From UHGV virus genome UHGV-0304279: 53,351 nucleotides of DNA. One strand, written 5' to 3'. The position numbers were made by a program, and so were the translations under genes. Source of the DNA: a virus. The notes beneath the pieces were generated by a model, which ran no database searches, was not told the DNA's origin, and saw only the letters and a program-made list of their open reading frames with translations. Positions 1-53,351 of the stretch are shown here, one piece after another (positions within the stretch are counted from its first letter, which is position 1; every line of letters starts with the position of its first letter).

Positions 1-56
1 AATCCATTTTGGTATGATTTAGCGTGATGCAGATCACAAAATTACAAGGTGAGAAA

Positions 57-761
57 ATGCGCAATATACCTACAGAAATGATTATTGATTCCGTCGATGC
101 CGGAGTTGGCGCGGTCATTGACTTGTTCGAACTGGACCTATCGCCACTTGGTGGCGAGGTTATCCGCTTCCATTCCGGTGCAAACGGCTATTACGGCCCT
201 GTTATCTGGAAGGACGTGGCTTACAACAGCTACCCGATCGAGGCTACTGGCTTCGAAATGAAAAACGAAGGCGTTTATTCACGTCCTCAAATGGTTGTAG
301 CCAACATCGGCGGCCTCATTACAGGGATGAATAACGATTTCAACGACCTCAGAGGCATGAAGGTAACGCGCCGCCAGGTGGAGGTAAAATATCTTGACGC
401 CGTTAACTTCCCTAACGGAAACCCCGACGCAGATCCATCTATTGAGGCTGTGTCTTTTTACGTAGTGGAGTCCATGAGCGAAGAAACAGCGGATCAGGTT
501 CAGTATGAACTGTCAACGCCAATTGATGCTGATAAAGCCGTTATCCCTGGTCGCACCATCCTTGCTGACGTTTGCCAGTGGCAATACAGGGGCGATGGTT
601 GCATGTATTCTGGCGGCCCGGTAGCAACGGATAAAGATGTACCGACAAGCGATCCAACGTTAGACAAATGCAGCCACAGATTGAGTGGTTGCCGTTTACG
701 TTTCCCGCGCCCGGCAGCACTGCCTATCTCCTGTTTCCCTGGTTCCAGCAAGGTAGGTTAA
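57..761 (+). CDS. minor tail protein L (lambda gpL-like)
   Basis: Translation aligns by eye with lambda gpL over its length (FLDAVNF, PGR..LA..C.W.YRG..C.YSG, SGC motifs); RBS AAGGTGAG before ATG at 57; the track ORF begins at 24 with a GTG. Confidence 0.85.
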   Translation: MRNIPTEMIIDSVDAGVGAVIDLFELDLSPLGGEVIRFHSGANGYYGPVIWKDVAYNSYPIEATGFEMKNEGVYSRPQMVVANIGGLITGMNNDFNDLRGMKVTRRQVEVKYLDAVNFPNGNPDADPSIEAVSFYVVESMSEETADQVQYELSTPIDADKAVIPGRTILADVCQWQYRGDGCMYSGGPVATDKDVPTSDPTLDKCSHRLSGCRLRFPRPAALPISCFPGSSKVG

Positions 762-763
762 TC

Positions 764-1495
764 ATGGGGATGGAAGACAAAATGTCGCGTTATGCCGCCG
801 CGCATCCGTTTGAGGAAGTTTGCGGGCTTGTAATAGATAACGAGTATTTTTACCCGTGCGCTAACGTATCTGAAACGCCTCACAACAGCTTCAAAATTTC
901 GCAGGACGATTACATCAAAGCGGACGAATTAGGCGTTATAACCGCCGTTTTTCACTCTCACGTTGATGATATTCCGGTATTGTCGGCACGGGATCGACAA
1001 CAGCAGGTTATTTCAGGGCTACCCTGGCTTTTGTATTCAGGCGGCAGGATCAGGAAATTCCGTCCGGTGGCGCACCTGTTAGGCCGTAAATTTGTACACG
1101 GAACGACAGATTGTTATGCGCTTTTTCGCGACGCCTATCACCTTTGCGGCGTGGACCTGCCGGACTTCGAGCGCCTTGATGGCTGGTGGCTTCGCGGTGA
1201 AAACCTGTATCTAAAAAACCTTCCATTGAACGGGTTTTATCAGGTTGATGCGCAAAGAATACAGCCTGGTGATGTGATCATTCGCCAGCCGTTTAAAGGT
1301 GCTGATCCATGTCACGCGATGGTTTACCTGGGCGATAACACAGTTTTACATCATGACCATGCCGGACTATTAAGCCGCCGCGAGCAAATGCGGCCCGCGT
1401 ATGTTCGACAGACTCATTCAATATGGAGATCTGATAAATGCTCAAATTTAGATTTACGGGCAATCTTCGAAGATATTACAGCAAAGTGTGTTTAA
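764..1495 (+). CDS. tail tip assembly protein K (lambda gpK-like, JAB/MPN plus NlpC/P60-type)
   Basis: Position after L and the HSH-containing segment typical of gpK; internal ATG at 764 directly follows the L stop, within track ORF 668-1495. Confidence 0.8.
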   Translation: MGMEDKMSRYAAAHPFEEVCGLVIDNEYFYPCANVSETPHNSFKISQDDYIKADELGVITAVFHSHVDDIPVLSARDRQQQVISGLPWLLYSGGRIRKFRPVAHLLGRKFVHGTTDCYALFRDAYHLCGVDLPDFERLDGWWLRGENLYLKNLPLNGFYQVDAQRIQPGDVIIRQPFKGADPCHAMVYLGDNTVLHHDHAGLLSRREQMRPAYVRQTHSIWRSDKCSNLDLRAIFEDITAKCV

Positions 1496-1968
1496 ACGTT
1501 GAAACGCCAGCGCAAGGACTTCGCTTATTGACCGCGCAGAATCAGGAATTCAAGAAGGCGTTTTTAAATACTCCTTTGCGTTTACGAATTGCCGGGAAAG
1601 ATTACAACGAAAAGACAGCGCCAGCGGCGGTTAATAGCAAATATCCAGATGGAACTACGGTAATTATTGCGCCAATAGTGGAAGGTGGTATTGCAGGGAT
1701 CGGTGTGGTCGGCTGGATTATGATTGGACTATCAGTTGTTAGTGTCGCTTTTTCTATTTTTATGTCTCGCAACATGAAAGTAAAAACATCATCAGAAAGC
1801 GCACAGGACAATACAATCACAAATAACACCTATACCAGCGTAGAAAACAAGGTAGGCCAGGGTAGACCAGTGCCGATTCTGCTTGGCGAAATGAAAGTAG
1901 GTTCAAACGTCGGATCGTTAGGCATAGACACGACAAATAATAAAGACGCCTTAGACGTTGTAAGTTAA
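1438..1968 (+). CDS. tail assembly protein I (lambda gpI-like)
   Basis: Position between K and J, overlaps the K 3' end as in lambda; hydrophobic glycine-rich central segment; start uncertain. Confidence 0.65.
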   Translation: MLKFRFTGNLRRYYSKVCLNVETPAQGLRLLTAQNQEFKKAFLNTPLRLRIAGKDYNEKTAPAAVNSKYPDGTTVIIAPIVEGGIAGIGVVGWIMIGLSVVSVAFSIFMSRNMKVKTSSESAQDNTITNNTYTSVENKVGQGRPVPILLGEMKVGSNVGSLGIDTTNNKDALDVVS

Positions 1969-1982
1969 CAGGAGAATTAACC

Positions 1983-4900
1983 ATGAGTAGCGGCGGCGGC
2001 AAAGCAAAAACACCGACTTTAATTAACGATAATCTATATCACAAACAGTTTTATCGTGTACTCGACATTATTTCAGAAGGTCCGATTTATGGTCCTGTTA
2101 ATACCAATGCGCCATTAAACAGCGTAATGCTTAATGACACTCCTGTAACTGACGCGAACGGTAATACCAGCATTCCAGGTGTTAGCGTTGCGTGGCGCAA
2201 TGGTACTGCCGACCAGTCACCGATCAACGGCTTTAATGCCATTGAATCCACGGTGATGGTTAACGCGCAGGTGAAACACGACACGCCACTGGTAAGGACG
2301 GTATCAGATCCGAACGTGACGCGAGTCCGGTTAAATATTGGTGTGGATTCACTGGTGGAAAGCGATAGCCAATCAAACCAGAAAGAAACATCTGTCATTA
2401 TGGCGATCGACGTTAAACCGTCCTCATCTTCCACATGGTCGTCTATCAAGGCCGTGCAAATAGGTCCAGGTAAAATCAGCGGAGAATACCTTGAAGCGCA
2501 TATTATCAATGCGCCAGATGAAAAGCCGTTTGATATTCGCGTTCGCCGTGTAACCGCTGATAGCACAAGCGATCTATTGCAGAATGATACGCGGTGGAAT
2601 AGCTACAGCGAAATAATCGACGATAATTTATCTTATCCTCACACCGCTGTAGCAGGCGCGGTTATTGACCACGATCAGTACACTGACACGCCTACCCGCA
2701 CCTATCACCTGCGTGGGCTTATTGTTGACGTGCCTGATAACTACGACCCGGAAACGCGCACTTATTCCGGTTTATGGCTTGGCGGGATGAAACAGGCGTA
2801 CACAAATAACCCTGCATGGATATTCCGCTACCTGGTTAAAAACGAGCGTTTCGGCCTTGCCCGTCATGCTGGCTACATTGACGTTGACGACGGCGCACTA
2901 TATACGCTATCCCAATACTGCGACCAGTTGGTCGATGATGGTTACGGTGGTCTTGAGCCGCGCGTTACGCTTAATGCTTACATTACGGAGCAAATGAGCG
3001 CACGCGACTTACTGGATAACATCGCCGGGATGTTCCGGGGGATCGCGTTATGGGACGGGCAACGCCTTACCGTGATGATTGATGCACCACAAGATCCAAT
3101 CGCCACCATTACGAATGCAAACGTTGTTGATGGCGCGTTTACTCGTTCAAGTATTTCCCGTGCGGAATGCTACAACGCCGTGATCGTATCCTGGACTGAC
3201 CCGGAAAACGGCTGGGAACAATCAAAAGAGTATGTAGCAGATGATGAATTAATCGCCCGTGACGGTTACAACGAAACCACGATGGAGGCGTTTGGCTGTA
3301 CGTCACGCGGGCAAGCGTACCGCGCTGGCAAATGGCTGATAGAAACAGCAAAACGCGAGCCGTCAAAATTCACATTTAAAATGGCCCGTGACGCGATTCA
3401 CTTTACGCCAGGGGATATTATCGAGATCCTCGACAATAACCGCGCAGGTGCGCGTTTAGGTGGTCGTATCGTGGCGAATAATGGGAACGTGATAACAGTT
3501 GATAAGGTTGACAGCGAGTACATCACGGCAGGCGACACTATCAGCCTGCTTGATAGCGATGGCAAATTTAAAAAACATCAGATCACTGGTATCAGCGGGA
3601 ACAAAATCACACTGGCTGCGGCCCCTGCATGGATTAGAAACGGTACTGTTTTTGCTGTATCAACCGAAGCAGCAAAACCCGTTTTATGCAGAATCACCAG
3701 TGTAGCCGAAACCGAAAATAATAGCGTGTATACCATCGAAGCCGCGCAACATGACCCTAACAAACAAGCAGTAGTCGATGAAGGCGCGATATTTGAAATC
3801 AACAACGACACGCTTAATCACTTCCGTGTACCGAATATTGAAAATCTGAAAGTGGTAAACATCGGATCTGAAACGGTTCAATGCCGCGCAACATGGGAAA
3901 CACAGACAACTACGCATCGCATGACATTCGAGATCCGCATATACAATACCGATGGTGCGGTGGTTAAAAGCTACGAAACAACGAAATACAGTTATGATTT
4001 TTACGGCATTGACGCTGGCGCGTATTCGTTAGGCGTTCGTGGAAGAAACGATACTGGCATGAAAGGTGCTGAAAGTATTGTCGATCTTGTTATTGGTGCT
4101 CCAGCCGCGCCAGTTGGCGTAAATTGGGTTCCCGGCGTATTCCAGGCGACCGTGTACCCGATAAGCAAAACCACGCTTACTACCGATACGTCATATGAAT
4201 TCTACTATGCTGGGGAAAACCAGATCACAGATCCTGCAATAATAACCACATCGGCACAGTTTACCGGGCGCGGGTATCAATGGACGTTCGGCGGCATGAA
4301 TACGGGCCATACTTATTACGTTTATGTGCGCACTCGCAATGCTTTTGGTGTGTCTGATTTCGTCGAGGCATCAGGTAAGCCGACAGAGGATTTTGACGAA
4401 ATTACTGATTACGTTACAAAGGATGTAATGGAGTCAGAGCAATTTAAGGAGATGATTAGCGACATTAAAGATCTTGGCGATCGCACTGACATTGTAGAAG
4501 GAGCTACCGAAGACCTTAAAATAGCTACAGAGGATCTTAAAGCTGACACAGATACACTTAAAAAAGACACCGAAGACCTTTATAAGAAAGTCGAAGAAAA
4601 CGCCGATGAAATAGGCAAACATGAGGTAAGAATAGACTCATTAGAGGTATCAAGCGAAAACGTTAATAACGAACTGGCACAGACAAAAGCAAGTTTACAA
4701 AACGCTTCGCTTGCTCTGATCAACAACTCGCTTGCTCAAACTAACACGCGGGTTACTCTTACCGCTCAATATAAGAAAGGTCGCAACGAAACAAAGGCAC
4801 AGATTGACCGCATTGACAACGTTATCGCAGAGGAGAAAAAAGCGACAGCGGAATCACTGGAAACCATCACAGCCGAAATAAGCACGATGGACTCAAACAT

Positions 4901-6035
4901 CAAAGGAGAGATAGCACGCGTAGACAAAGCAATAGCAACAGAAACGCAGGCAAGAAGCGACGCAATAACAGAAGTTAAAGCTGATCTTACAACGCTTGAA
5001 AGTAATACAAATGCCAGTGTTAGCCGTCTCGATCAGGCCATCGCTGATGAGTCAAGCGCCCGCGCCCAGGCAATATCAGGAATCAGTGCGGAGCTTGGTC
5101 TTGTTGAAAATGAGGTTGATAAAAACAGCGACGAAATAGATCAGGCGAAAGCAAGTCTACAAAACGCTTCACTTGCTCTGATCAACAACTCAATAGCGCA
5201 AAGCAAAATGAGCACTGTTATTGAGGCAAAATACAGGAAAGGCCAGACAAAAACAAAAGCGGAAATAGCAAGGATCGACACCGCAATAGCAGACGAAACC
5301 CAGGCCCGCGCGGAGGCTATAGCATCGCTTGAGGCAAATATTAATGAAAACATTTCAGCAAAAATAACAGATATATCAACGGCGCTTGCAACTCACGAGG
5401 AATCAAGTGCTGAAAAATTTGTTCAAATATCGGCATCTTTCGACGATGTAAACTCAAGCATCACGGAATGGTCACAGGCTATGGCAACGGCAGACGAGGC
5501 ATTATCAACCAAAATTGATCAGCTAACAGTTACCGTTAACGGGAACACAACAGCTATCGAGACGACATCGAAAGCATTAACTGATTTCAAAGGTGACGTT
5601 AACGCATCATATTCAATCAAGATTGCCACTGATAACAACGGCATGAAATATGCCACTGGCATGTCGCTTGGCCTGACTGGTAGCGGGACTAACGTTCAAT
5701 CGCAGTGCATTTTCCTCGTTGACCGCTTCGTGTTAATGACCGCCGCAAACGGCACATATACAACGCCTTTCTATGTCACTGGCGGCGCAATGTATGTACG
5801 TGAAGCGTTTATTAAGGACGCATCAATCACTAACGCGAAAATAGGTTCTTACATCCAATCAAATAACTATGTTTCCGGCAGCACAGGCTGGAAACTTGAT
5901 AAATCCGGTACATTCGAAAACTACGGATCAGTAAGCGGTGAAGGGGCGATGAAGTGGACGAATACAACGATCTCTGTCAGAGATGGAAATAGCGTGTTAC
6001 GCGTCCAGATTGGGCGAATTACCGGATCATGGTAG
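1983..6035 (+). CDS. tail tip / host specificity protein J (central tail fibre), with long C-terminal coiled-coil extension
   Basis: N-terminal two thirds resemble lambda gpJ throughout (N-terminus, NPAW, YCDQ.V.DG.GG.EPR.T.NAY, FGCTSRGQA.RAG.WL motifs); 1350 aa; C-terminal part is heptad-rich with an internal duplication. Confidence 0.9.
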   Translation: MSSGGGKAKTPTLINDNLYHKQFYRVLDIISEGPIYGPVNTNAPLNSVMLNDTPVTDANGNTSIPGVSVAWRNGTADQSPINGFNAIESTVMVNAQVKHDTPLVRTVSDPNVTRVRLNIGVDSLVESDSQSNQKETSVIMAIDVKPSSSSTWSSIKAVQIGPGKISGEYLEAHIINAPDEKPFDIRVRRVTADSTSDLLQNDTRWNSYSEIIDDNLSYPHTAVAGAVIDHDQYTDTPTRTYHLRGLIVDVPDNYDPETRTYSGLWLGGMKQAYTNNPAWIFRYLVKNERFGLARHAGYIDVDDGALYTLSQYCDQLVDDGYGGLEPRVTLNAYITEQMSARDLLDNIAGMFRGIALWDGQRLTVMIDAPQDPIATITNANVVDGAFTRSSISRAECYNAVIVSWTDPENGWEQSKEYVADDELIARDGYNETTMEAFGCTSRGQAYRAGKWLIETAKREPSKFTFKMARDAIHFTPGDIIEILDNNRAGARLGGRIVANNGNVITVDKVDSEYITAGDTISLLDSDGKFKKHQITGISGNKITLAAAPAWIRNGTVFAVSTEAAKPVLCRITSVAETENNSVYTIEAAQHDPNKQAVVDEGAIFEINNDTLNHFRVPNIENLKVVNIGSETVQCRATWETQTTTHRMTFEIRIYNTDGAVVKSYETTKYSYDFYGIDAGAYSLGVRGRNDTGMKGAESIVDLVIGAPAAPVGVNWVPGVFQATVYPISKTTLTTDTSYEFYYAGENQITDPAIITTSAQFTGRGYQWTFGGMNTGHTYYVYVRTRNAFGVSDFVEASGKPTEDFDEITDYVTKDVMESEQFKEMISDIKDLGDRTDIVEGATEDLKIATEDLKADTDTLKKDTEDLYKKVEENADEIGKHEVRIDSLEVSSENVNNELAQTKASLQNASLALINNSLAQTNTRVTLTAQYKKGRNETKAQIDRIDNVIAEEKKATAESLETITAEISTMDSNIKGEIARVDKAIATETQARSDAITEVKADLTTLESNTNASVSRLDQAIADESSARAQAISGISAELGLVENEVDKNSDEIDQAKASLQNASLALINNSIAQSKMSTVIEAKYRKGQTKTKAEIARIDTAIADETQARAEAIASLEANINENISAKITDISTALATHEESSAEKFVQISASFDDVNSSITEWSQAMATADEALSTKIDQLTVTVNGNTTAIETTSKALTDFKGDVNASYSIKIATDNNGMKYATGMSLGLTGSGTNVQSQCIFLVDRFVLMTAANGTYTTPFYVTGGAMYVREAFIKDASITNAKIGSYIQSNNYVSGSTGWKLDKSGTFENYGSVSGEGAMKWTNTTISVRDGNSVLRVQIGRITGSW
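4686..5213 (+). repeat. internal direct duplication inside J coiled-coil region (copies about 4686-4729 and 5170-5213)
   Basis: Near-identical about 44 nt segments encoding KASLQNASLALINNS(L/I)AQ, each followed by a similar about 50 aa block. Confidence 0.7.
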
Positions 6036-6397: not shown

Positions 6398-6996
6398 TGG
6401 CTACTTTTGGCGCTTATTTACGCCTAGATAATGGCAATATTTTTGTAACGCCGGATTCTACCCCGATGTGCTTATATTCGCGGGTGGCATTAAATTCCAG
6501 CCAACAACAAACGATCGCTGTACCCAACGGTAAGCCTGTAATGGTATTCATCAAAAACACCGACGACACCGCTACTGGGCTTGCCTATCGCGCATCATCA
6601 TCTACGGTAGTGATCCCGCCTGGCAACGGGTATGCGTATATATTCAGCATCTTCCCGCCATCGCTGCCGAAATGGGGGATGGCTATCTGGAACGCTTCCG
6701 GGGAACTGGTACTGACCAACGAATCAAAAATATTAACCGACCTTGTTACAGTAGGCACGGCGGGATCGAGCGGGGGGATTTATATCGATCAAACATTATC
6801 AGGATCTTATGCGGTAGTGCCTCAGATATTGGGGGCCGCTGTAGGTATGGGTTCCGCAACAATATATACAGAATCATACTACAACGGCAGCAATACACGA
6901 ATTCGCGGGAAGATGGTTGGTAGCTTGCAACAGATTTACGGTTACATTAATCACGGGAACGCTATCACCGCCATTAAAACCGACGCCTATGATTAA
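6397..6996 (+). CDS. hypothetical protein, MATFG paralogue 2
   Basis: Start overlaps the stop of the previous gene (TAATG); N-terminal paralogy; glycine/serine-rich. Confidence 0.5.
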   Translation: MATFGAYLRLDNGNIFVTPDSTPMCLYSRVALNSSQQQTIAVPNGKPVMVFIKNTDDTATGLAYRASSSTVVIPPGNGYAYIFSIFPPSLPKWGMAIWNASGELVLTNESKILTDLVTVGTAGSSGGIYIDQTLSGSYAVVPQILGAAVGMGSATIYTESYYNGSNTRIRGKMVGSLQQIYGYINHGNAITAIKTDAYD

Positions 6997-7232
6997 TTCA
7001 GTTCCGGGCAATCCGTTTTCTTGAAGTGGTCAACGCTTACCCATTGGAAGTTAAACGGATACCCGGCCTTAACCATTTTATGACCGCCAACATCCGCGAC
7101 ACCGAAGACTGCAACCGCATATTCATTACCTCCAGCCTGATAAGTTGCCGTGCATTCACGTTTCGGCATATCAGCGCAACCAACCATACCAGCGACCATT
7201 GCAGCTATAGCGATATTTTTAAAGCCTTTCAT
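6993..7232 (-). CDS. small lipoprotein (moron), candidate superinfection-exclusion factor
   Basis: Minus-strand ORF inside the tail operon; signal peptide with lipobox-like VGC (MKGFKNIAIAAMVAGMVGCAD); RBS GGAGG upstream. Confidence 0.5.
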   Translation of the reverse strand: MKGFKNIAIAAMVAGMVGCADMPKRECTATYQAGGNEYAVAVFGVADVGGHKMVKAGYPFNFQWVSVDHFKKTDCPELN

Positions 7233-7307
7233 TGTCTTATCCTCCATTGTTCCGTCGGTTGTAGTATCCATAAACATCGTTTTCTCAACATTGATATAAA
7301 TCAATAA

Positions 7308-7362
7308 ATACATTTTGTATAAGCCAGAAATGTAACGCAGATCACAAAATGGTAAAATTACC
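7308..7362 (+). promoter_or_regulatory. restart promoter-like region upstream of the tail fibre gene
   Basis: Contains ATACATTTTGTATA and GATCACAAAATGG motif copies plus extended -10-like TGgTAAAAT at 7350-7358. Confidence 0.4.
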
Positions 7363-7391
7363 AGGTTAATTAACATAATGGAGTCATTGCG

Positions 7392-9170
7392 ATGATTTAC
7401 ACAACAGGCACGATAGCCGTTAGCGGAAACACAGTTACCGGAAAGGGGACTGAATTCAACGCCGCATTATCTCTGATCAGAGTTGGTTGCACTCTTATTG
7501 CCATTAGCGATCCGGTGCAAATTTTTTCAATCACAGAGGTAAAAAGCGCAACAAGTTTGTCGGTAACTCCGGCGGCAAGCCCGTCTATTCCGGCTGGGAC
7601 TAAATTTAGCATCCTGCTTTCAGATTCGATCTCTGTGGATGGTCTTGCTCAGGATGTCGCCGAAACACTACGTTACTATCAGGGCAAGGAATCAGAAATA
7701 GCTGACGCCGTAGAATTTTTTAGCGACAACAAGGATGTAATTTCAGCCTCAAAATTAGCGTCAGAATCGGCTACCACTGCAACTAACGCAGCAACAACAG
7801 CGACAACCGCCGCCAATTCAGCAAAGACATACAGAGACGAGGCCCACGAATACGCCAATCAGACGGCGCAGCCTTACGCGTATGTTTTGCAGCCGCTGCC
7901 GGACGTATGGATACCGTTTAATGATTCACTTGATATGCTCACTGGCTACGGCCCTGGCACTAAAAAAGTAACCATTGATGGTGAAGAAAAAACAATATCA
8001 TCAGATAAGGTTGTTTCTTTCTCACGCGCAAGCACTGCGACCTATATCAATAAATCCGGTGTACTCACCACTGCTGATATTGACGAGCCACGTTTCGAAC
8101 GCGAAGGATTATTAATCGAAGGTACGCGCACGAATTACCTGCGCAATTCTAACAATCCAGCATCGTGGCCTATTCATAGCCAATTAACTAAAGAAACGGG
8201 CGCAGACGAAAACGGGTTTAACTATGCGACAGTAACAGTAAGCGACGATCTTGTAGGGACGACAGGCGGTTACACTGTGCATGGCGTAGTTACAGCTGAT
8301 AGATTTGCATTAGCCGCTGGCGAGAGCCTCACACTTTCCGCTCTTTGCCGTGGTACTAATGCACGCTGCCGGGCGCGTATATCAATTATTGTTGATGGAA
8401 CTGATACATTTTCTGCTGACTCTTATTTAAATTTAAATACAGGTGAAGCGTTAGTGTCTGGTGATACTACGCTAATCACTACGAAATCAGAGCAACGTGG
8501 CGATTGGTATTACTTTGAAACAACATACACAGCAAAGGTTGATATAGATGCTGTTAATTGTTCTTTTTATATATCTAACCTGGTAAATGATAGCTTTTAT
8601 TCCGATTCTTCTATGGCATTAGCAACTCCGCAAATCGAGTTAGGTTCTTGCGCATCATCGTTTATTGTATCAGGTGACACTCCAACCACACGAGCAAGCG
8701 ACATGGTAAGCATACCTACTAAGAATAACCTGTTTAAGCCACCATTCAGTTTTTTACTTGAATTACACAAGGAATGGACAACAGCACCAAACGCAGCGCC
8801 TAGAGTATTTGACATTGCAAACGCAAACACAGGGCAAAGTGTTATAGCTGCTATTAACAGAGGTAGCAGTAAATTTTACGTTTCCTTGTCTAACAGTTCT
8901 GGTACTTACATCAATTCTGCCGCTGATTCCGTATTGCCAAGTAAAGCCATTGTTGGTGCGGTAGTTAAAGGTGATGATACTTTTCACGCGATCATGGATG
9001 GTGTGGCGGTTGCAGATACAACATGTTCCTACGGTGGAGTAACTCAAGACAAAAACATCAGATTCGGCGGCCAGGTAGCAGACGGAGCGCGTCACTTGTT
9101 CGGACATATAAGAAATTTTCGTATCTGGCACAAAGCATTAACTGATTCTCAATTAAGCGAAATTGTTTAA
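7392..9170 (+). CDS. side tail fibre protein with C-terminal lectin-like (LamG/ConA-like) domain
   Basis: 592 aa; Ala/Thr-rich fibre-like segment (SESATTATNAATTATTAANSAKTY); C-terminal domain resembles a concanavalin-like lectin fold. Confidence 0.7.
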   Translation: MIYTTGTIAVSGNTVTGKGTEFNAALSLIRVGCTLIAISDPVQIFSITEVKSATSLSVTPAASPSIPAGTKFSILLSDSISVDGLAQDVAETLRYYQGKESEIADAVEFFSDNKDVISASKLASESATTATNAATTATTAANSAKTYRDEAHEYANQTAQPYAYVLQPLPDVWIPFNDSLDMLTGYGPGTKKVTIDGEEKTISSDKVVSFSRASTATYINKSGVLTTADIDEPRFEREGLLIEGTRTNYLRNSNNPASWPIHSQLTKETGADENGFNYATVTVSDDLVGTTGGYTVHGVVTADRFALAAGESLTLSALCRGTNARCRARISIIVDGTDTFSADSYLNLNTGEALVSGDTTLITTKSEQRGDWYYFETTYTAKVDIDAVNCSFYISNLVNDSFYSDSSMALATPQIELGSCASSFIVSGDTPTTRASDMVSIPTKNNLFKPPFSFLLELHKEWTTAPNAAPRVFDIANANTGQSVIAAINRGSSKFYVSLSNSSGTYINSAADSVLPSKAIVGAVVKGDDTFHAIMDGVAVADTTCSYGGVTQDKNIRFGGQVADGARHLFGHIRNFRIWHKALTDSQLSEIV

Positions 9171-14940: not shown

Positions 14941-14958
14941 TATGGCATTACCTCATGT

Positions 14959-16077
14959 TTACAAAATGGAATATTCAGGGTAATAAACAAAGCGCCCAAT
15001 TTCTCCATGAGCCGGGCTGTAAATAATCACCGCCGCCAGCCGCCGTGAACGCCAGCCGCCATTCGTCGAGTAAGCATCTTTGCCAGCTAACGTTCCGTGA
15101 TACTCGACAACGCCTAACGATGATTCAATCAGCCGCTGGTGATGCCAGTGTCCGCAATGAGCGTAAACCGACGACGATTTACCGAAATCCTCCCGCCAGT
15201 CAGAAACACAGGCAGCAAGTAAGGTTTCTGGTTTTTTGATGGTGTGTCCGTGGTGGTAAGCAAGGAATGTTTTTCCGTATTGTGTGTGGTGGACGATAGC
15301 AGGGGACACATCAACCGTTACGCGCGGTTCATCTTCGTAAAAAGCCGCCAGCGCCGCACGTAGCCAAATCATCCCCGACTGATCGTGATTGCCGGATAAC
15401 ACCTGGATCTCGACGCCCTTATGGTTTAACAACATTTTCCCCACCGCACGCCGGACCGACCGGATCGCCACATAAACAAGTTTTGCGTAGCGTGAATCGC
15501 AATCTAAGACGTGATTACTTGATGGCGTCACTGGTAATAGCCCGTCCGTGTGAAGCACATCACCGCCGAGAAGCAATACAGCTTTTTCAGACGTTGGTGC
15601 AGCGCCTACAGCGTAGTCAAAGAAGTCATTTAACACGCGTTCAGCGATCCCGGTGTCGTAGCTTTCTCCGCATTCAGCTTTATGCGCAAGCGCCCCGATA
15701 TGCAGATCGAATACCGGATAAAGGGCCAGGCTTTTCTGAAAATCAATTTCCGGCACTGGCACGGCTTCCGCGCGCGGCATTTCTTCCGTAAATGCGTCAC
15801 AAGCTGCCTGCATTAGCCTTTCCATTTCCTCACGGTCACGGGCCGTTTTAATCCAGCGCATGATTACATTGCCATCTTTATCAACGAGCAATGATTCACC
15901 ATTGACACCAAAACCCGGCGCGCGGCGCGTGGATATTAAACCGCGTTTCGCCAGCCGTGCGCCCAGGCGCTCGACGTTGCGTTTTGCCATGCCGTACTTC
16001 TCAGCGATCTGTTTATACGTCAGGCCGCTGTTATGTTCAGCGATTAATTCCTCATCGCTGATCTTTCTTTGTGACAT
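14959..16077 (-). CDS. HTH domain fused to calcineurin-like metallophosphoesterase (SbcD/Mre11-type motifs)
   Basis: N-terminal LTYKQIAEKYGMAKRNVERL HTH; phosphoesterase motifs DLHIG, GGDVLH, GNHD, GHWHH; ATG at 16077 with RBS GAGGA. Confidence 0.6.
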   Translation of the reverse strand: MSQRKISDEELIAEHNSGLTYKQIAEKYGMAKRNVERLGARLAKRGLISTRRAPGFGVNGESLLVDKDGNVIMRWIKTARDREEMERLMQAACDAFTEEMPRAEAVPVPEIDFQKSLALYPVFDLHIGALAHKAECGESYDTGIAERVLNDFFDYAVGAAPTSEKAVLLLGGDVLHTDGLLPVTPSSNHVLDCDSRYAKLVYVAIRSVRRAVGKMLLNHKGVEIQVLSGNHDQSGMIWLRAALAAFYEDEPRVTVDVSPAIVHHTQYGKTFLAYHHGHTIKKPETLLAACVSDWREDFGKSSSVYAHCGHWHHQRLIESSLGVVEYHGTLAGKDAYSTNGGWRSRRLAAVIIYSPAHGEIGRFVYYPEYSIL

Positions 16078-16206
16078 AACGTTATTCCTCATGTTTACAG
16101 AATGTATATTTATTTTCCGTAAAACGCGCTACAACGCAAAATCCCACCGCGTAACCCACTTGTAAGAGTGCAGTGTCTTTCTTGCGTCAGAGGCGCTATC
16201 AGGTGG

Positions 16207-17560: not shown

Positions 17561-17782
17561 AAACATTGGCCTCCTATGGTTAAAATGAACGCGCGGGCGG
17601 GTATCCAATTAGCATTAGATAGCGGTGAGTGACCGCTTAACAGATCCCGCCGTTGCGTGATATTTGTCTTTCGCTTCGCAGCGACACCGGATTTTTAAAG
17701 AGCATGAGGTATGCGCCTTTTTGTGCTATTCCGTTATCTTTTTTCTTGCGTCTTTGCAACTATGGCCTTACCTTGTCTGCAA

Positions 17783-17840
17783 GTTTACAGAATGGAGTTT
17801 TTAGATCAAGACTTGAAAAATACATTTTGTGACTTGTATC
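17783..17840 (+). promoter_or_regulatory. candidate promoter/operator region upstream of the repressor gene
   Basis: Motif copies GTTTACAGAATGG (17783) and TACATTTTGTGAC (17821); -35-like TTGAAA (17811-17816) and -10-like TATCAA (17835-17840). Confidence 0.35.
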
Positions 17841-17868
17841 AAACTTTTTGAGGTTATAGGGTAGCGAC

Positions 17869-18516
17869 ATGAAAACAAAATGGTATGACTTAGCAAAGCA
17901 GCTCATGCGAGCGCAAGGCATGAGCCAGGATTCACTCGCGGATCTCATGGGGATAACTAAAGGCGGCCTGTCACACTGGCTTAACGGTCGCCGCGAGCCA
18001 AATCTTGAAGATATTGCGCGGATTATGCGGGCACTTGGTCGTCGGCAGTTCACTGTTACCCATGATGGAATGGTCATTGATGATTCTGTTTCTAACACGT
18101 TACCGGGAGCGCCGCAGCGTGATTTAGGCAGTTACCCGGTTGTTGACTGGAAGGACACAGTAAACAATATGGAAGATACAAGGCGATCAACATTACCACA
18201 CGTTACGACTAGCGTTATTTGTTCAGATGATAGTTACTGGCTGGTTGCTAAAGGTGAATCAATGAACGCGCCGCAGGGGTTGAGCATCCCTGCCGGGACG
18301 ATGATACTTGTTGACCCACACGCGCCAGCTATCGATGGAAAGCTGGTTATAGCACAGCTTGAGGAAGGGCAAATACCGACGTTTAAACAGTTGATTATTG
18401 ATGGAGGTCAAAGGCTTTTACGTTCGCTTAACCCGCTGTATCCACCAATCCCCATGAATCCTGAATCGAAAATCATAGGCGTGGTGGTGGACGCGAAGAT
18501 CGTAAACCTGCCATAA
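17869..18516 (+). CDS. CI-like repressor (HTH XRE plus S24 LexA-like peptidase domain)
   Basis: N-terminal HTH (SQDSLADLMGITKGGLSHWLNGRR); C-terminal S24-like segment with GESM and a later Lys; 215 aa. Confidence 0.8.
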   Translation: MKTKWYDLAKQLMRAQGMSQDSLADLMGITKGGLSHWLNGRREPNLEDIARIMRALGRRQFTVTHDGMVIDDSVSNTLPGAPQRDLGSYPVVDWKDTVNNMEDTRRSTLPHVTTSVICSDDSYWLVAKGESMNAPQGLSIPAGTMILVDPHAPAIDGKLVIAQLEEGQIPTFKQLIIDGGQRLLRSLNPLYPPIPMNPESKIIGVVVDAKIVNLP

Positions 18517-18626: not shown

Positions 18627-18669
18627 GTATACAAAATGGATTGACTCGGTGTATCACGGGGCGTATATT
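18627..18669 (+). promoter_or_regulatory. candidate sigma70 promoter of the rightward operon with upstream motif copy
   Basis: -35 TTGACT (18641-18646), 17 bp spacer, -10 TATATT (18664-18669); motif GTATACAAAATGG immediately upstream. Confidence 0.5.
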
Positions 18670-18804
18670 TCGAGGCAAAGGAGGTAGCAAGGCAGGGGAA
18701 AGAAGGTTACTTGCTCTTTAACAATCTGGTCAGCCGCTGGAAGTGCGGCAATTAATGAAGATGATTTTTATTAAGTATCATCATGGATATAAGGAGATCA
18801 GATT

Positions 18805-19095
18805 ATGACCGTAACAATTATGTATGGCAAATGTGATAGCAAAATAAATGCCAGGGAACGCAGAAGAATAAAAAGAGAAAACGAAAGAAAATCATCACCT
18901 GCAATCAATAAAACTGACAATGTTGATAAAGCTATTCGTTTTGCAAACGTAGAAAGATGCAAACCGAATGGCATTAAAGAGCATCGCAAAGGTGCGGCAA
19001 AATGGTATGCGGAAAACGAAAGCGGCAATTACTACCACGCAACACAACCGCGTAGTCTAGGGGAAAAACCCCTGGATAAAGTACGCTACAGATAA
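18805..19095 (+). CDS. hypothetical basic protein
   Basis: RBS AAGGAG 8 nt before ATG; first gene of the rightward operon. Confidence 0.45.
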   Translation: MTVTIMYGKCDSKINARERRRIKRENERKSSPAINKTDNVDKAIRFANVERCKPNGIKEHRKGAAKWYAENESGNYYHATQPRSLGEKPLDKVRYR

Positions 19096-19244
19096 TACAA
19101 AATGTAAACTTTCAAAGGTGACATTATGGTTGTTCAGGCGCTTCAATTCAAACTGGCTGTAGCGGAAATGCTTCACGATGCCGAAATGTGGAGCACCGCG
19201 AATAAAGCTTTATATGTAGTGTTAACAGCGAGGGAGATTAAAGG

Positions 19245-22515: not shown

Positions 22516-22555
22516 ATATACATTTTGTATTGTGGTCGCATATCCGTTTTGTAAG
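22516..22555 (+). promoter_or_regulatory. intergenic motif pair
   Basis: ATATACATTTTGTAT (22516-22530) and CCGTTTTGTAAG (22544-22555). Confidence 0.35.
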
Positions 22556-22591
22556 AAGAAATCGAAAGGTTTACGGCGCGGAGAAAACAAG

Positions 22592-26050: not shown

Positions 26051-26131
26051 GTTTACAAAATGGCGTCATTGTGTGATGAGGATCACATAATGGCGCTTTG
26101 CACCTTGTTTGCGTGTATCCGTTTTGTATAC
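26051..26131 (+). promoter_or_regulatory. intergenic regulatory region with motif copies and a CRP-like palindrome
   Basis: GTTTACAAAATGGC (26051-26064); TGTGA-N6-TCACA (26072-26087); CCGTTTTGTATAC (26119-26131) with -35-like TTGTTT and -10-like TATACT. Confidence 0.4.
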
Positions 26132-26208
26132 TTCAAACAAACAAAATGCTCTTTAAAAATCCGGTAACGCTGAAATGCGTAGAAATCACCTGAAAAGGAG
26201 AGAGCATT

Positions 26209-32577: not shown

Positions 32578-32596
32578 ATGTGATCTACTTCTCAAA

Positions 32597-32640
32597 GTAT
32601 ACAAAATGGCATTGTTCCTGCAGTGCCGTTTTGTTATATA
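32597..32640 (+). promoter_or_regulatory. intergenic motif pair with promoter-like hexamers
   Basis: GTATACAAAATGGC (32597-32610), -35-like TTGTTC, CCGTTTTGTTATATA (32626-32640). Confidence 0.4.
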
Positions 32641-32674
32641 TAAGTCGAGGAAAGACGGAAGGGGAGACAAGAAA

Positions 32675-34941: not shown

Positions 34942-35433
34942 ATGATTAGCCAATCGCTGAAGAACAAGATTATTGCTGCGGCGGCTGGTGGGGCGATCGC
35001 TATTGCGGCTGTGATGGTTAAACCATTAGAAGGCGTGGAGTACGATCCGTATCGTGATGTTATCGGTGTATGGACTGTATGTTATGGTCATACCGGAAAA
35101 GACATCATGCTTGGTAAGACTTACACGCAATCAGAATGCGATGCTTTGTTAAATAAAGATCTCCACAAAACCGCAAAAGCGATCGACCCCTATATTAAAG
35201 TCGAAATATCAGATTTTACCCGCGCGGCGCTTTATTCATTCGCCTATAACGTAGGCGCTACCAACTTTAAAACATCAACATTATTGAAGCTACTCAATGA
35301 CGGCAAGAAATCGGAAGCGTGCGCACAGCTTAAACGCTGGATCTATGCTGGTGGTAAGCAGTGGCAAGGGTTAATTAACCGTCGTGATATTGAATATGCC
35401 GTTTGCGAATGGGGTGAAACATGGACAAGGTAA
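34942..35433 (+). CDS. SAR endolysin (T4-lysozyme-like, GH24) with N-terminal signal-anchor-release domain
   Basis: Catalytic-region motifs (EG..YDPY.D..G.WT.CYGHTG) preceded by a Gly/Ala-rich weakly hydrophobic N-terminal helix ([18 protein letters not shown]). Confidence 0.8.
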
Positions 35434-39492: not shown

Positions 39493-40866
39493 ATGCCATC
39501 CAATTTAGAATTGGCGGTTAATGCTGCCTTGTCACAACGCCAGGCGGCCTTTGCCCGCTATGCAGCCGCTAACCCATTCTCAATGGGTATTGATGCAAAA
39601 CGTGATGCTGCGTGGAGTGAATACGGATTCAAAGAAGAAATCACCTATGACGATTTATACAAACTGTATCGTCGCGGTGGTATCGCTCACGGTGCTATTG
39701 AGAAGATCATCACTACGTGCTGGCGCACCAGGCCAACGCTGATCGAAGGTACGGAAGACGAGAAAGCAGAAAAGGAAACGCCGTGGGAAAGAGAAATCAA
39801 AAAACGATTTGATAATCGTTTCTGGCGCGTCATAGCTGAATGCGATCGCCGCCGCCTCATTGGTCGTTATGCTGGCCTGTTAATTCACGTCAGGGATAAC
39901 CAGTCGTGGGATCAGCCAGTGACGAAAGGTGTAGGCATTGCCAAATTTACCCCTGTATGGGCTGGTGCTCTTACACCGAAGGACTTCGAAGAAAACCCGG
40001 ATAATGAAAACTATGGCCTGCCGACATGGTGGGAATACAAGGAGCGCATTAACAGTAAGACCATAGCAAGAAAGATACATCCCGATCGCATATTTATCTT
40101 CGGTGATTATTCTGATGATGCCATCGCTTTCCTTGAGCCGTCCTATAACGCATTCGTTTCGCTGGAGAAAGTGGAAGGCGGTAGCGGTGAGTCATTCCTG
40201 AAAAACGCCGCGCGTCAACTGGCTATCTCGTTCGATAAAGAAATTGATTTCCGTTCCCTGGCTGCAACATACGGTTGCGACGTTACAGAGCTACGCGAAA
40301 AATTCAATGAGGCGGCAGAGGATATAAACAAGGGCAATGATGTGATGATGGCATTGCAGGGAGCTACCGTTAGCCCGCTGGTCACTGCCGTAGCCGATCC
40401 GTCCGCTACCTATGACGTCAACCTGCAAACCGCCGCCGCTGGCATCGACATTCCAACGCGTATCCTAGTTGGGAATCAGCAGGGTGAGCGTGCATCAACC
40501 GAAGACCTCCGCTACTTCAACAACCGCTGTATGACCCGCCGGGAGGAAATCGGAGGCGAGCTTGAGGAGTTATTCCGCAAGATGGCAGACCTTCGCCTTA
40601 TCAGTATGCCAGTCGATGTGTCGGTACTGTGGGACGACCTTAACGCCATGACGAAAGCCGAGCTACTCGACGCGGCATACAAAATGGCACAAATCAATCA
40701 GGCATGTCTCGCTACTGGTGAACAGGTATTTGACGGTGACGAGATCCGCGAAGCTGCCGGATATGAAGGGCCAACGCAGGAAGTAGAACTGGACGACGAG
40801 GAAAACGATAATGAAGGTGAAGAAAATAATCAGGCGAATACCTCCAGCCGCGATAATGCCATCTAA
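39493..40866 (+). CDS. portal protein
   Basis: About 458 aa directly after the large terminase, acidic C-terminus; RBS AGGAG. Confidence 0.75.
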   Translation: MPSNLELAVNAALSQRQAAFARYAAANPFSMGIDAKRDAAWSEYGFKEEITYDDLYKLYRRGGIAHGAIEKIITTCWRTRPTLIEGTEDEKAEKETPWEREIKKRFDNRFWRVIAECDRRRLIGRYAGLLIHVRDNQSWDQPVTKGVGIAKFTPVWAGALTPKDFEENPDNENYGLPTWWEYKERINSKTIARKIHPDRIFIFGDYSDDAIAFLEPSYNAFVSLEKVEGGSGESFLKNAARQLAISFDKEIDFRSLAATYGCDVTELREKFNEAAEDINKGNDVMMALQGATVSPLVTAVADPSATYDVNLQTAAAGIDIPTRILVGNQQGERASTEDLRYFNNRCMTRREEIGGELEELFRKMADLRLISMPVDVSVLWDDLNAMTKAELLDAAYKMAQINQACLATGEQVFDGDEIREAAGYEGPTQEVELDDEENDNEGEENNQANTSSRDNAI

Positions 40867-47996: not shown

Positions 47997-48247
47997 AATT
48001 AACCCCTGTAATTATTCTGATTTGCTAAATGCTTCCTTTAACTTAGTTATACACGCATATTGTTTATTTTTTAAGTGCTTTTAACATTTCTTCGATAAGG
48101 TCCGCATAGCGTTCATATTCGTTGGGACGGTAGTTTACGTTTCTCATTTTCTTATCCTCTTTCACTTCCTCCGGGACATCCGGCCTTCCTGCATCTCTTC
48201 TATCTTTCTCTACATCATCTATACAAAACGGTATCGTTAAAATAAAG

Positions 48248-48288
48248 ACATTTTGTATAAAATAGATACATAGATCACATTTTGCATG
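48248..48288 (+). promoter_or_regulatory. restart promoter-like region upstream of the tape measure gene
   Basis: ACATTTTGTATAA with -10-like TATAAA, then GATCACATTTTGCATG; RBS GAGG before ATG 48299. Confidence 0.4.
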
Positions 48289-51143: not shown

Positions 51144-51253
51144 TTTTCATCCTATAATCTTCCGTTACGTGCGACGTAACCCCCTGCCGAACATCACTAA
51201 CCAGATGTTCCAGATCTCCCGCTAGGTATATTTCTCCTCCTCCATATTCCACC

Positions 51254-51508: not shown

Positions 51509-51525
51509 AACTCACCCCATCGTCC

Positions 51526-51681: not shown

Positions 51682-51754
51682 TTTTGGGCCTCACTTGCTG
51701 GTACCGCTTTTCTTCTTGCTTCCTGTATACGGCTTGTTGCTTCATGTGTGAATA

Positions 51755-51837
51755 CATATTGTAAACTAGCTATAATTCTTGTGACGAATATCTCATTTTT
51801 CGCGTAGAAGCGCGTAAAGATATATACAAAATGTAAC
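51755..51837 (+). promoter_or_regulatory. restart promoter-like region upstream of the gpM-like gene
   Basis: ATACATATTGTAAAC (51755-51769), perfect -10 TATAAT (51771-51776), ATATACAAAATGTAAC (51822-51837). Confidence 0.45.
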
Positions 51838-51851
51838 TTACAGGAGGGGGT

Positions 51852-52205
51852 ATGCCGGAAGTGTTCAGATGGACACCACAGAGAAGCTACAGCGTAAACA
51901 GTGAGCCTAACGTGTCCGTTATCAAGCTGGGCGATGGCTATGAACAGCGCCAGACAAAAGGGATTAATCCACTACTTGACAGCTATACGCTGGTCTTTAA
52001 AGGTACGAGCGCCGGATGCGGTGACGCCGGAAACGTGGCGCTCCAGGTTGACGCATTTTTAAGAGCACGTTGCGCGGTCGAGGCGTTTTACTGGACGCCA
52101 TCTACAGACGGAGTGAAAAGGCTTTTTGTATGCCGAAAGTGGAGCATGGCGAAAGACGGCCCGGTATGCACTCTGAATGCAACGTTTGAACAAGTTATCA
52201 ATTAA
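51852..52205 (+). CDS. minor tail protein M (lambda gpM-like)
   Basis: Resembles lambda gpM end to end (FRW.P, GDGY.QR, FLWTP, C.KWS, F.AEFEQV.N); RBS AGGAGGGGG. Confidence 0.8.
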   Translation: MPEVFRWTPQRSYSVNSEPNVSVIKLGDGYEQRQTKGINPLLDSYTLVFKGTSAGCGDAGNVALQVDAFLRARCAVEAFYWTPSTDGVKRLFVCRKWSMAKDGPVCTLNATFEQVIN

Positions 52206-52218
52206 TGGAGAAGTCAAT

Positions 52219-52404
52219 ATGTATGCTATTTGTGTAGTTGACCGCACGGGCGCTTTTACATTATTTGACGACTATGAAATCAAAGATCTTACCGTAAAGG
52301 CTGACAATGGCGAGATCTGGTATCTTCATGACGTTGGTGACGGGTATGTTGGGTGCAGGTCGAGAGAGGGAAGGGAAGTTTTATTTTTGGTTGATAGCGT
52401 ATAA
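52219..52404 (+). CDS. hypothetical protein
   Basis: RBS GGAGAAG. Confidence 0.4.
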   Translation: MYAICVVDRTGAFTLFDDYEIKDLTVKADNGEIWYLHDVGDGYVGCRSREGREVLFLVDSV

Positions 52405-52504
52405 ACACGACCCCGCGCGAAGCGGGGTTTATAGTGTCGATAGCAGAATGCATAACAATCCAATAATGATAATAATCATCTCCAGAACGTAATGTTCGCA
52501 CATC

Positions 52505-52753
52505 TCATAACGCCCCCTTCAAATATGTCAATCCCTTATCAGTGACGAATGAATGGTTTACCTGGTTTTCATCCGTCATGATGATGAATAACTTTTCCTG
52601 TAGGTATTTCGCTTTTGGGTACAGCGTTAAACAGACCTGGTACAAAACCCCGCGCTCAATCAGCAAATCAATAAATTCGTGCTCATGATAACCGATAAGG
52701 CGGGCGGCCTGTTTCAACGTGTACACATAGCCACCGTGATTGCGCCGCGTCAT
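52505..52753 (-). CDS. hypothetical protein (moron; possible HTH)
   Basis: RBS AAGGTGG. Confidence 0.45.
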   Translation of the reverse strand: MTRRNHGGYVYTLKQAARLIGYHEHEFIDLLIERGVLYQVCLTLYPKAKYLQEKLFIIMTDENQVNHSFVTDKGLTYLKGAL

Positions 52754-52762
52754 ATTGCCACC

Positions 52763-53113
52763 TTATTTGCCGAACGCTCCCAGGTTGTCGATACAGAAAT
52801 CTTTTGCCGCTTTTTCGTATTCACGTTTTGCTTGCGGATCATCTGCCGGGAAACCTTTTGCGTGTATTTCACCAGGACAAGCCTGATCCATAGAGTTGGC
52901 AAAATTAACATTGAAGTTAACATTAATATCTTTCGGGTTCATATCTTCCACCTCATCTGGTATTTGCACCGGAACAACCACAAAATCACGCGCACTAGAC
53001 CAACAACGCAGCAATTCACGACCATCATCACGCGCGGCGTTGTATGTATCGAATAACCCTATGCGCTCCCATTCGCATTTATCAGTGAACACCTCTAATC
53101 TGTATTTTTGCAT
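52763..53113 (-). CDS. hypothetical protein (moron)
   Basis: ATG 53113 with RBS AAGGGTAG. Confidence 0.4.
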   Translation of the reverse strand: MQKYRLEVFTDKCEWERIGLFDTYNAARDDGRELLRCWSSARDFVVVPVQIPDEVEDMNPKDINVNFNVNFANSMDQACPGEIHAKGFPADDPQAKREYEKAAKDFCIDNLGAFGK

Positions 53114-53117
53114 AATG

Positions 53118-53297
53118 CTACCCTTCATTTATTGGCCTGATCCGGTAGCCGATAATGCGGCTATCTTTCTCCATAAGTTCAAAAGCCGTATCTATAGCAT
53201 CATCAGGATTATCGAAATCAGACGTTATGTTTTCATTTCCAGTCATGAAAACCGTAAGCCTCCATAACTTACCGCCGCCATTGCTGCATCGCGCCAT
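53118..53297 (-). CDS. hypothetical protein (moron)
   Basis: ATG 53297 with RBS GGAGGT. Confidence 0.4.
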   Translation of the reverse strand: MARCSNGGGKLWRLTVFMTGNENITSDFDNPDDAIDTAFELMEKDSRIIGYRIRPINEG

Positions 53298-53351
53298 TTT
53301 GTTTACCTCCATTCGTTTGAGTAAAATATACATATTGTAAAAACCGCGATC
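53293..53351 (+). promoter_or_regulatory. motif-containing region at the window end, continuous with positions 1-56 upstream of the gpL-like gene
   Basis: GCCATTTTGTTTAC and ATATACATATTGTAAAA here; CCATTTTGGTATG and GATCACAAAATT at 4-43. Confidence 0.35.

Follow-up and report, generated by a model that had tools for sequence, protein, structure and literature searches.

The 53,351-nucleotide viral genome UHGV-0304279 (the whole stretch analysed here, hereafter the window) carries a short palindromic motif, approximately ATACA-N3-TGTAT, which an earlier note made by eye had listed at 22 places, almost all of them intergenic, and had attributed either to a genome-wide operator for a phage regulator or to a phage-specific promoter element. 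This raises the question of which factor reads a motif that recurs from the immunity region to the late tail genes. Our analysis indicates that it is most likely the operator of a lambda-type CI repressor of the Rep021 family, arranged as a dispersed network over about 11 control regions. The presumed binder is the product of the cI-like repressor gene at 17869-18516 on the plus strand, a protein of 215 amino acids (aa) with HTH_3 and Peptidase_S24 domains.

The window shares about 85% DNA identity with the mEpimmI coliphages mEp021, mEp010, MagusPhagus and others, and on the basis of its sequence it is a temperate E. coli phage of the mEpimmI group (mEp021-like coliphages). Because its end runs unbroken into its start in alignments of 32 related loci, it is a complete, circularly permuted genome, in which positions 53290-53351 and 1-56 form one intergenic region. 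The mEpimmI phages are temperate, Nus-dependent, non-lambdoid siphoviruses of the human gut, for which a lambda CI-like repressor conferring immunity (Rep021), an N-like antiterminator (Gp17) and three nut sites were described in 2025; that description leaves the operators undefined and does not mention the recurrent motif (PMC11893012). A full-text literature search for the motif sequence returned unrelated primers only.

The dyad and its counterparts at lambdoid operators

The element is a 17-bp partial dyad, GTWTACA-N3-TGTAWAC, and both halves score positive in 11 strong sites. The word TACAAAATG occurs 10 times against 0.80 expected, a count reached by none of 100 shuffles, while ATACAAAATG is the most over-represented 10-mer of the window (8 observed, 0.22 expected). 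Non-coding DNA, roughly 8-10% of the sequence, holds 13 of the 17 copies of ACAAAATG, and the dyad GTWTACAWWWTGTAWAC with up to 3 mismatches gives 10 matches against 1.9 expected, nine of them intergenic. A self-trained matrix iterated at low threshold slid into start-codon contexts (AAAATGG after Shine-Dalgarno sequences) and was dropped; all operator scores given here come from a symmetric matrix trained solely on 21 operators from four outside prophages, with no window sites used. This matrix finds 13 window sites of at least 12 bits, compared with a mean of 1.47 and a maximum of 5 in 100 trials on random sequence, and 11 of these fall within non-coding DNA, which makes up 7.7% of the window (binomial P = 4e-11). 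The motif is thus enriched over shuffled controls as well as in intergenic DNA. Applied to mEpimmI loci totalling 1.37 Mb, this matrix yields 13.9 matches per 53 kb; in lambda-like tail regions of other phages, 831 kb in all, it yields a single one (0.06 per 53 kb).

Alignments of up to 45 relatives revealed fixed motif cores and variable flanks, with operator columns 93% identical across relatives compared with 80% for other intergenic columns (Mann-Whitney P = 1e-12), and mEp021 carries the same words at equivalent places. Besides boxA, the motif is the only repeat common to the pL/pRM and pR regions. Its asymmetric form GTTTACAAAATGG keeps the same plus-strand orientation in both leftward and rightward operons.

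The window's repressor matches the Pfam families HTH_3 (E=4.9e-13) and S24 (E=3.6e-19) as well as the lambda CI structure PDB 3BDN over residues 15-208 (E=3e-19), that is, over both domains, the C-terminal one being responsible for cooperativity in lambda. It is the sole window open reading frame (ORF) with this type of helix-turn-helix (HTH). In a syntenic lineage (our loci L130-133) the CI protein is just 55% identical, its recognition helix TKGGLSHWLNGRR is identical, and the motif is the most enriched word and is dispersed as in the window. Further CI homologues of 37-55% overall identity and with a near-identical recognition helix (T[KQ]G[GA][LVI][SG]HW[LM]...RREP) are encoded by unrelated lambdoid phages and prophages from Citrobacter (L134-136), Enterobacter (L137), Tatumella (L138) and Serratia (L139), by the viral contigs L047-049, by Salmonella phage ST64T (L140), with a repressor of the phage L-type c2, and by Erwinia phage Midgardsormr38 (L141).

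Every one of these lambdoid carriers has three dyad copies between cI and cro, with centres 32-34 and 26-27 bp apart; those at OR of ST64T read TAATACATTTCGTACTA, TAATACAATATGTGTGT and CAATACATCTCGTAATA. On the pL side, which was examined in five lineages, two to three copies are present, the promoter-proximal pair being 25 bp apart, and the dyads wrap a promoter, which is followed by a boxA in both cases read that far. The contigs L047-049, whose CI is 37% identical, had been planned as negative controls, and their word counts are unenriched, yet they possess the three-site OR and were therefore counted as positive evidence. In total, the dyad stands at OR in seven or more unrelated lambdoid lineages. 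Because the copies occupy textbook OR and OL positions, we regard the dyad as the kind of operator that belongs to this DNA-binding domain of CI (and Cro). Matrix matches in the lambdoid relatives occur at OR and OL only; the operator type is therefore common to lambdoid phages, and its dispersal is specific to the mEpimmI family.

Operator-promoter register and competing explanations

All promoters discussed here are consensus predictions from a weighted sigma-70 promoter score applied to the circularised sequence. In seven regions, measured from the best promoter, operator centres occupy positions -16 to -18 and -41 to -43 or -50/-51, with the -10 hexamer beginning at the 13th (sometimes the 14th) base of the proximal operator and the -35 hexamer at the 15th base of the distal one. 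As this register is fixed, the 25-bp operator spacing corresponds to a 17-bp promoter spacer. Pairs with centres 24-25 bp apart are found in the window at 22524/22548, 32605/32630, 48227/48252 and 53334/8; among the relatives, 50 of 108 distinct adjacent pairs show this spacing, and the arrangement recurs at pL in ST64T and in the prophages of Enterobacter and Tatumella. The frequent TGG half, which takes the place of TGT, is the one adjoining or overlapping the -35 TTG. The contacts that had been noticed between the motif and the -35 at 18641 and the -10s at 26126 and 48255 were confirmed and generalise to this register, and the observation that the restart points following antisense morons in the tail operon all carry a motif held in four of four cases (48299, 51852, 57 and 7392). 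The sub-motif ATCCGTTTTGTA, reported to recur three times, is exact at 22542 and 26117, whereas the copy at 32625 differs at 3 bases; it represents the promoter-proximal (-16) operator variant, and AATCCGTTTTGTATTG occupies the equivalent site of a Citrobacter prophage.

A strict register of this kind would also be produced if the motif were the core of a duplicated promoter unit (T-rich spacer, TG and -10, with a UP-like A-tract before the -35) that is kept for its contacts with RNA polymerase. The invariable placement of both hexamers favours this explanation, and ACAAAATG beside the -35 resembles the proximal UP-element consensus AAAAAARNR. However, the dyad is conserved in both halves, sites also lie at +1, +10, +47 and -25 and in operons without promoters, and the three-site OR of the lambdoid relatives flanks two divergent promoters, which is the behaviour of an operator. 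We consider the promoter unit unlikely, and with it a pure phage-specific promoter element, one of the two options originally offered. The other option, a genome-wide operator for a phage regulator, is supported and made specific to the CI family by the dyad in outside lambdoid phages.

It is very unlikely that another phage regulator, whether Cro-like or unrecognised, takes the place of CI as the main binder. Such a regulator is suggested by ST64T, which encodes, next to the same operators, a Cro whose recognition helix is similar, and by the many small early ORFs of the window that have no assigned function. Against it, six-frame searches of the window detected neither a Cro homologue nor a second protein with a CI-type HTH, and across unrelated phage backbones the dyad tracks the CI DNA-binding domain. 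With respect to gene order, cI and the pR operon share their direction of transcription, and the leftward operon opens directly with nutL and the replication initiator, the region 17567-17868 being without a cro-like gene. At the Cro position, mEp021 encodes gp14, which resembles the N-terminal winged-helix domain of the window's replication protein, while the deeper-branching relative L130 has a 75-aa HTH_3 gene divergent from cI.

Scarcely credible is a host-factor site (CRP, Fis, IHF) or an RNA element (translation enhancer, hairpin), for although some copies overlap CRP-like boxes and many lie 10-30 nt upstream of Shine-Dalgarno sequences, the main dyad is unlike TGTGA-N6-TCACA and the IHF and LexA consensus sequences, its stem would be just 5 bp, an Rfam search gave no match, asymmetric copies in both orientations relative to transcription point to a symmetric DNA binder, and the motif is essentially absent from the 831 kb of other phages. 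A LexA (SOS) box, CTGT-N8-ACAG, was rejected in agreement with the earlier note, as the half-sites are spaced by 3 bp and not 8 and the CTGT/ACAG core is missing; readings as IHF, Fis, TyrR, LexA or CsrA-type sites did not fit the consensus sequences. A sigma54 element had likewise been discounted in the earlier note.

Several observations nevertheless weigh against assigning the motif to CI. In 44 mEpimmI-like viral contigs the repressors are 92-100% identical to that of the window, and a single repressor type in all known group members precludes a within-group test of protein-site covariation; footprinting of the immunity region over 37 distinct relatives was likewise uninformative, the whole region being nearly invariant. 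About one third of the sites have one good half-site and fall below the score level at which random sequence yields many matches. On the promoter side, several predictions are weak (7-9 bits), and a generic promoter scan recovered pR alone among the promoters predicted here and found no overall excess of promoter-like sites. Furthermore, pR has one strong site near -41, a position also used by class II activators, and the phage encodes a Q-type antiterminator as well, so that CI-repressed sigma-70 promoters before the tail genes would be unusual.

Control regions along the genome

Each of the 22 listed sequences is present in the window at its stated coordinates, although the list does not represent one motif throughout: about 15 entries are good operators, whereas the GATC-type copies and 53293-53306 are not. 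Eleven entries are strong (7308, 16093, 17821, 18627, 19094, 22516, 26119, 48248, 51755, 51822 and 53328) and three moderate (14957, 22544 and 32597); three more have one good half-site (4-16, 17783 and 26051), and 32626 scores below zero and was retained for its promoter-relative position. Beyond this list, copies were found at 48219-48235, 17871-17887 and 18652-18668.

In the immunity region, pL is predicted to start at 17775 on the minus strand (TTGATC at 17809-17804, a 16-bp spacer and TAAACT at 17787-17782; 10.8 bits), with operators at -16 and -51. The first of these, at 17783-17799 (GTTTACAGAATGGAGTT, 5.0 bits), has one good half and a conserved core and overlaps the -10; the second, at 17818-17834 (AAATACATTTTGTGACT, 12.3 bits), lies at the same time at -43 of pRM, an OR2-like position. 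The predicted pRM (TTGTAT at 17834, a 17-bp spacer and TAGGGT at 17862) starts at 17869 on the plus strand, and the cI transcript is probably leaderless, starting on the A of the cI ATG as in lambda; this arrangement is also visible in Serratia and Erwinia relatives. At +10 of pRM, in the first cI codons, a weak operator-like site (17871-17887, GAAAACAAAATGGTATG, 3.4 bits) contains a 16-nt repeat that is 88% identical to the distal site of pR, and constraint on the coding sequence may account for its conservation. The predicted start of pR is 18676 on the plus strand (TTGACT at 18641, a 17-bp spacer and TATATT at 18669; 15.5 bits). Its distal operator at -41 (18627-18643, GTATACAAAATGGATTG, 15.9 bits) ends with the TTG of the -35, while 18652-18668 (TATCACGGGGCGTATAT), a degenerate sequence with a total of about 0 bits in which the right half CGTATAT fits, is called a probable, weak proximal operator because of its position: the centre is at -16, 25 bp from the distal site, in the register seen in relatives. 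The nut sites nutL (17692-17704) and nutR1 (18712-18724) follow pL and pR, respectively.

Three sites lie within operons, just upstream of Shine-Dalgarno sequences and without a convincing promoter. The one at 19093-19109 (TAATACAAAATGTAAAC, 16.9 bits), between the N-like gene and the next gene, has a conserved core and varying flanks, and a rightward promoter there would have a poor -35 only. In the leftward operon, 16093-16109 (GTTTACAGAATGTATAT, 14.8 bits; minus-strand context TGTAAACATGAGG) adjoins, on the upstream side, the Shine-Dalgarno sequence of the gene at 14959-16077, and the moderate site 14957-14973 (GTTTACAAAATGGAATA, 9.7 bits), upstream of the DnaB-like helicase gene, is nearly invariant in 33 distinct relatives.

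Further rightward, a conserved distal operator at 22516-22532 (ATATACATTTTGTATTG, 19.4 bits) is paired, at 24 bp, with a proximal one at 22540-22556 (ATATCCGTTTTGTAAGA, 9.8 bits) that includes the exact ATCCGTTTTGTA. The promoter associated with nutR2 is predicted to start at 26139 on the plus strand (TTGTTT, a 16-bp spacer and TATACT at 26127-26132; 10.1 bits); its operator at -16 (26115-26131, GTATCCGTTTTGTATAC, 16.5 bits) overlaps the TATACT, and the boxA of nutR2 (26147-26159, TGCTCTTTAAAAA) begins 9 nt after the predicted start. A conserved but weak operator-like half-site stands upstream at 26051-26067 (GTTTACAAAATGGCGTC; left half 6.6, total 2.9 bits). For the plus-strand promoter at 32647 (TTGTTC at 32612, a 17-bp spacer and TATATA at 32640, with an extended -10 TG), the distal operator at -42 (32597-32613, GTATACAAAATGGCATT) reaches 8.7 bits; the proximal site at -17 (32622-32638, AGTGCCGTTTTGTTATA) scores below 0 and is kept solely because of its 25-bp spacing from the distal site and the shared CCGTTTTGT core.

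Among the tail genes, the tape-measure restart has a predicted plus-strand start at 48270, with a -10 only (TAAAAT or TATAAA). Its operators are 48219-48235 (CTATACAAAACGGTATC, 7.5 bits) at -43, upstream of the gene and with a conserved core, and the fully conserved 48244-48260 (AAAGACATTTTGTATAA, 15.6 bits) at -18, which overlaps either version of the -10. The plus-strand promoter at 51783 (GTGAAT at 51748, a 17-bp spacer and TATAAT at 51776; 11.6 bits) has operators at -25 and +47. The former, at 51750-51766 (GAATACATATTGTAAAC, 17.4 bits), lies in the spacer of this promoter and covers the -10 of a leftward candidate of 9.0 bits, both hexamers being conserved; the latter, at 51822-51838 (ATATACAAAATGTAACT, 15.9 bits), is a conserved leader operator 14 nt before the ATG at 51852.

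The divergent control region at 53290-53351/1-56 contains two strong predicted promoters that overlap in opposite orientations, one starting at 53318 on the minus strand (TTGATC, a 17-bp spacer and TATATT; 13.3 bits) and one at 53334 on the plus strand (TTGTTT at 53299, a 17-bp spacer and TAAAAT at 53327; 12.2 bits). Both share the operator at 53326-53342 (ATATACATATTGTAAAA, 16.4 bits), which is centred at -16 of the leftward and +1 of the rightward promoter and is conserved across the window junction. A weak, conserved site formed by 53351 and 1-16 (centre 8, CAATCCATTTTGGTATG; 3.1 bits, left half 5.0) constitutes the distal (-41) operator of the leftward promoter, 25 bp from the shared one, and its reading along transcription, CCAAAATGGATTGATC, parallels the ACAAAATGGATTGACT of pR. 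The leftward promoter, the strongest predicted after pR, precedes a three-gene antisense operon (52505-53297, minus strand) whose last product, of 82 aa, has an ANT/KilAC antirepressor domain (Pfam E=4.5e-6); the operon may encode a CI-controlled antirepressor.

The top score of the window, 20.1 bits, belongs to the conserved operator at 7306-7322 (AAATACATTTTGTATAA) in the divergent region between a lipoprotein gene (6993-7232, minus strand) and the tail gene at 7392. It is located at -51 of a plus-strand promoter predicted at 7365, which has the extended -10 TGGTAAAAT (11.3 bits) and a CRP-like box overlapping its -35 region. The long minus-strand ORF at 6993-7376 is probably a 79-aa lipoprotein gene that begins at 7232 (MKGFKNIAIAAMVAGMVGC, with GGAGG before it), which leaves 7233-7391 intergenic; it is likely an Lpp-type superinfection-exclusion gene.

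Sequences of the form TGTGA-N6-TCACA with at most one mismatch occur nine times in the window against 1.36 expected, and six of them fall in operator-bearing control regions (23-38, 7331-7346, 17828-17843, 26072-26087, 32579-32594 and 51780-51795). Four of these six lie about 60-63 bp upstream of predicted starts (pL, 26139, 32647 and 53318), the geometry of class I CRP sites, and mEp021 shows the same association of boxes and operators. The GATC-type copies 32-43, 7340-7352 and 48273-48288, together with the unlisted 26081-26097, score poorly as operators and are, from their sequence, better read as CRP-like boxes: 32-43, 7340-7352 and 26081-26097 are right halves of such boxes, and 48273 is box-like in its right half only. 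Specifically, 7340-7352 combines the right half of the box at 7331-7346 (TGTAACGCAGATCACA, 1 mismatch; operator score 1.3 bits) with the extended -10 of the promoter at 7365. The box at 23-38 (CGTGATGCAGATCACA; operator score -8.2 bits), at about -63 from the antirepressor-operon promoter, and the perfect box at 26072-26087 (TGTGATGAGGATCACA, 0 mismatches), at about -60 from the nutR2-associated promoter, both have conserved half-sites and a variable spacer. The latter forms the top of a 15-bp hairpin at 26062-26096 (GCGTCATTGTGTGAT / ATCACATAATGGCGC), in which two G-U pairs form on the plus strand only and which is the counterpart of the predicted terminator t4 of mEp021.

The listed copy 53293-53306 is a ribosome-binding site and start codon instead: 53290-53306 on the minus strand has an operator score of -0.2 bits, and it contains the Shine-Dalgarno sequence GGAGG 7 nt upstream of the in-frame ATG (53297) that opens the first gene of the minus-strand operon; the stretch also supplies the -35 TTGTTT of the promoter at 53334. 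Operator-grade matches inside genes were seen at 39655-39671 in the portal gene (16.7 bits), with a similar match at a comparable place in the portal gene of mEp021 (centre 29110), and at 35038-35054 in the lysozyme gene (12.1 bits). The near-identical copies of GCAAGTYTACAAAACGCTTC at 4689-4709 and 5151-5171, 462 bp apart within the gene for a 1350-aa tail fibre, were rejected as operators and belong to a coding repeat.

A proposed dispersed CI regulon

Judged by its sequence, the window site is a member of the lambda-type operator class of the phage L/ST64T repressor type. It shares with the operators of these C2 repressors the 17-bp partial dyad, the consensus and the HTH_3 plus S24 repressor, as well as pairs spaced by 25-26 or 33-34 bp, the embedding of the -35 in the outer bases of the distal site and of the -10 in those of the proximal site, and a cI transcript from pRM that is probably leaderless. 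In contrast, the phage L/ST64T-type sites occur only at OR (three copies) and OL (two or three), while the window has about 20 sites in about 11 regions over 53 kb, including the late tail genes, lacks cro and a three-site OR, and has cI co-directional with the pR operon.

We infer CI binding, promoter activity, the choice between repression and activation at each site and the cooperativity between sites from these arrangements, which suggest the following model. A CI dimer would presumably bind each 17-bp dyad, and dimers at the proximal (about -16) and distal (about -42) sites would cover the whole core promoter, with pairs 24-25 bp apart, a spacing like that of cooperative operator pairs of the lambda type, probably being cooperative. 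Bound CI would block the -35 and -10 and so silence about ten promoters at once in the lysogen, which would hold the prophage off at many points instead of two. Its targets would be pL, pRM, pR, the early promoter before nutR2, the rightward promoters at about 22560 and at 32647, the four tail-operon restarts (48270, 51783, 53334 and 7365) and the leftward antirepressor-domain operon. For pRM, the site at -43 takes the position of CI self-activation in lambda, and the site at +10 could give negative autoregulation. Each of the three nut sites would follow its own repressor-controlled promoter (pL-nutL, pR-nutR1 and 26139-nutR2). The in-operon sites at 14957, 16093 and 19093 may, speculatively, act as roadblocks or as anchors of DNA loops; roadblocks might serve a purpose in this genome, as transcription runs the same way through cI and the pR operon. 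The full proposal would make the mEpimmI CI a genome-wide silencer of about ten sigma-70 promoters, among them a third early promoter feeding nutR2, Q-independent tail restarts after every antisense moron and an antirepressor-operon promoter that perhaps replaces Cro, with roadblocks and a class I CRP input at about -61. Taken as a whole, this proposal is less likely than not.

Dispersed immunity operators are known from other phages, and the window's sites resemble them in their dispersal but do not belong among them. In coliphage P1, the single immunity repressor C1 regulates numerous operons from sites of some 17 bp spread along the genome; the sites lack symmetry, and C1 is an unrelated protein that binds as a monomer, whereas the window presents a dyad and a lambda CI/LexA-like repressor. 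More than 20 genome-wide repressor sites are likewise found in the mycobacteriophages L5 and Bxb1 (stoperators, bound by gp71 and gp69) and in Streptomyces phage phiC31 (conserved inverted repeats), mostly in short intergenic gaps and in part within operons without promoters. The repressors of L5/Bxb1 and phiC31 are unrelated to the window's CI, and stoperators are asymmetric 13-bp sites of strict orientation, while the window's sites are dyads whose asymmetric copies occur in both orientations, mostly over core promoters. As for the many in-operon sites away from promoters that mark stoperators, three sites of the window (14957, 16093 and 19093) lack a convincing promoter, and most others overlap predicted promoters.

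For a group of coliphages that is common in the human gut and was described only recently, these results offer a first concrete model of the operators of its repressor, and the model predicts which promoters this repressor controls. As a Rep021 expression plasmid and six phages exist, the predictions are directly testable. The promoter predicted 9 nt before the nutR2 boxA, as a third early promoter under repressor control, would account for the third nut site. More broadly, the findings suggest that dispersed regulons like those of the P1, phiC31 and L5 repressors can also be governed by a lambda-type CI.

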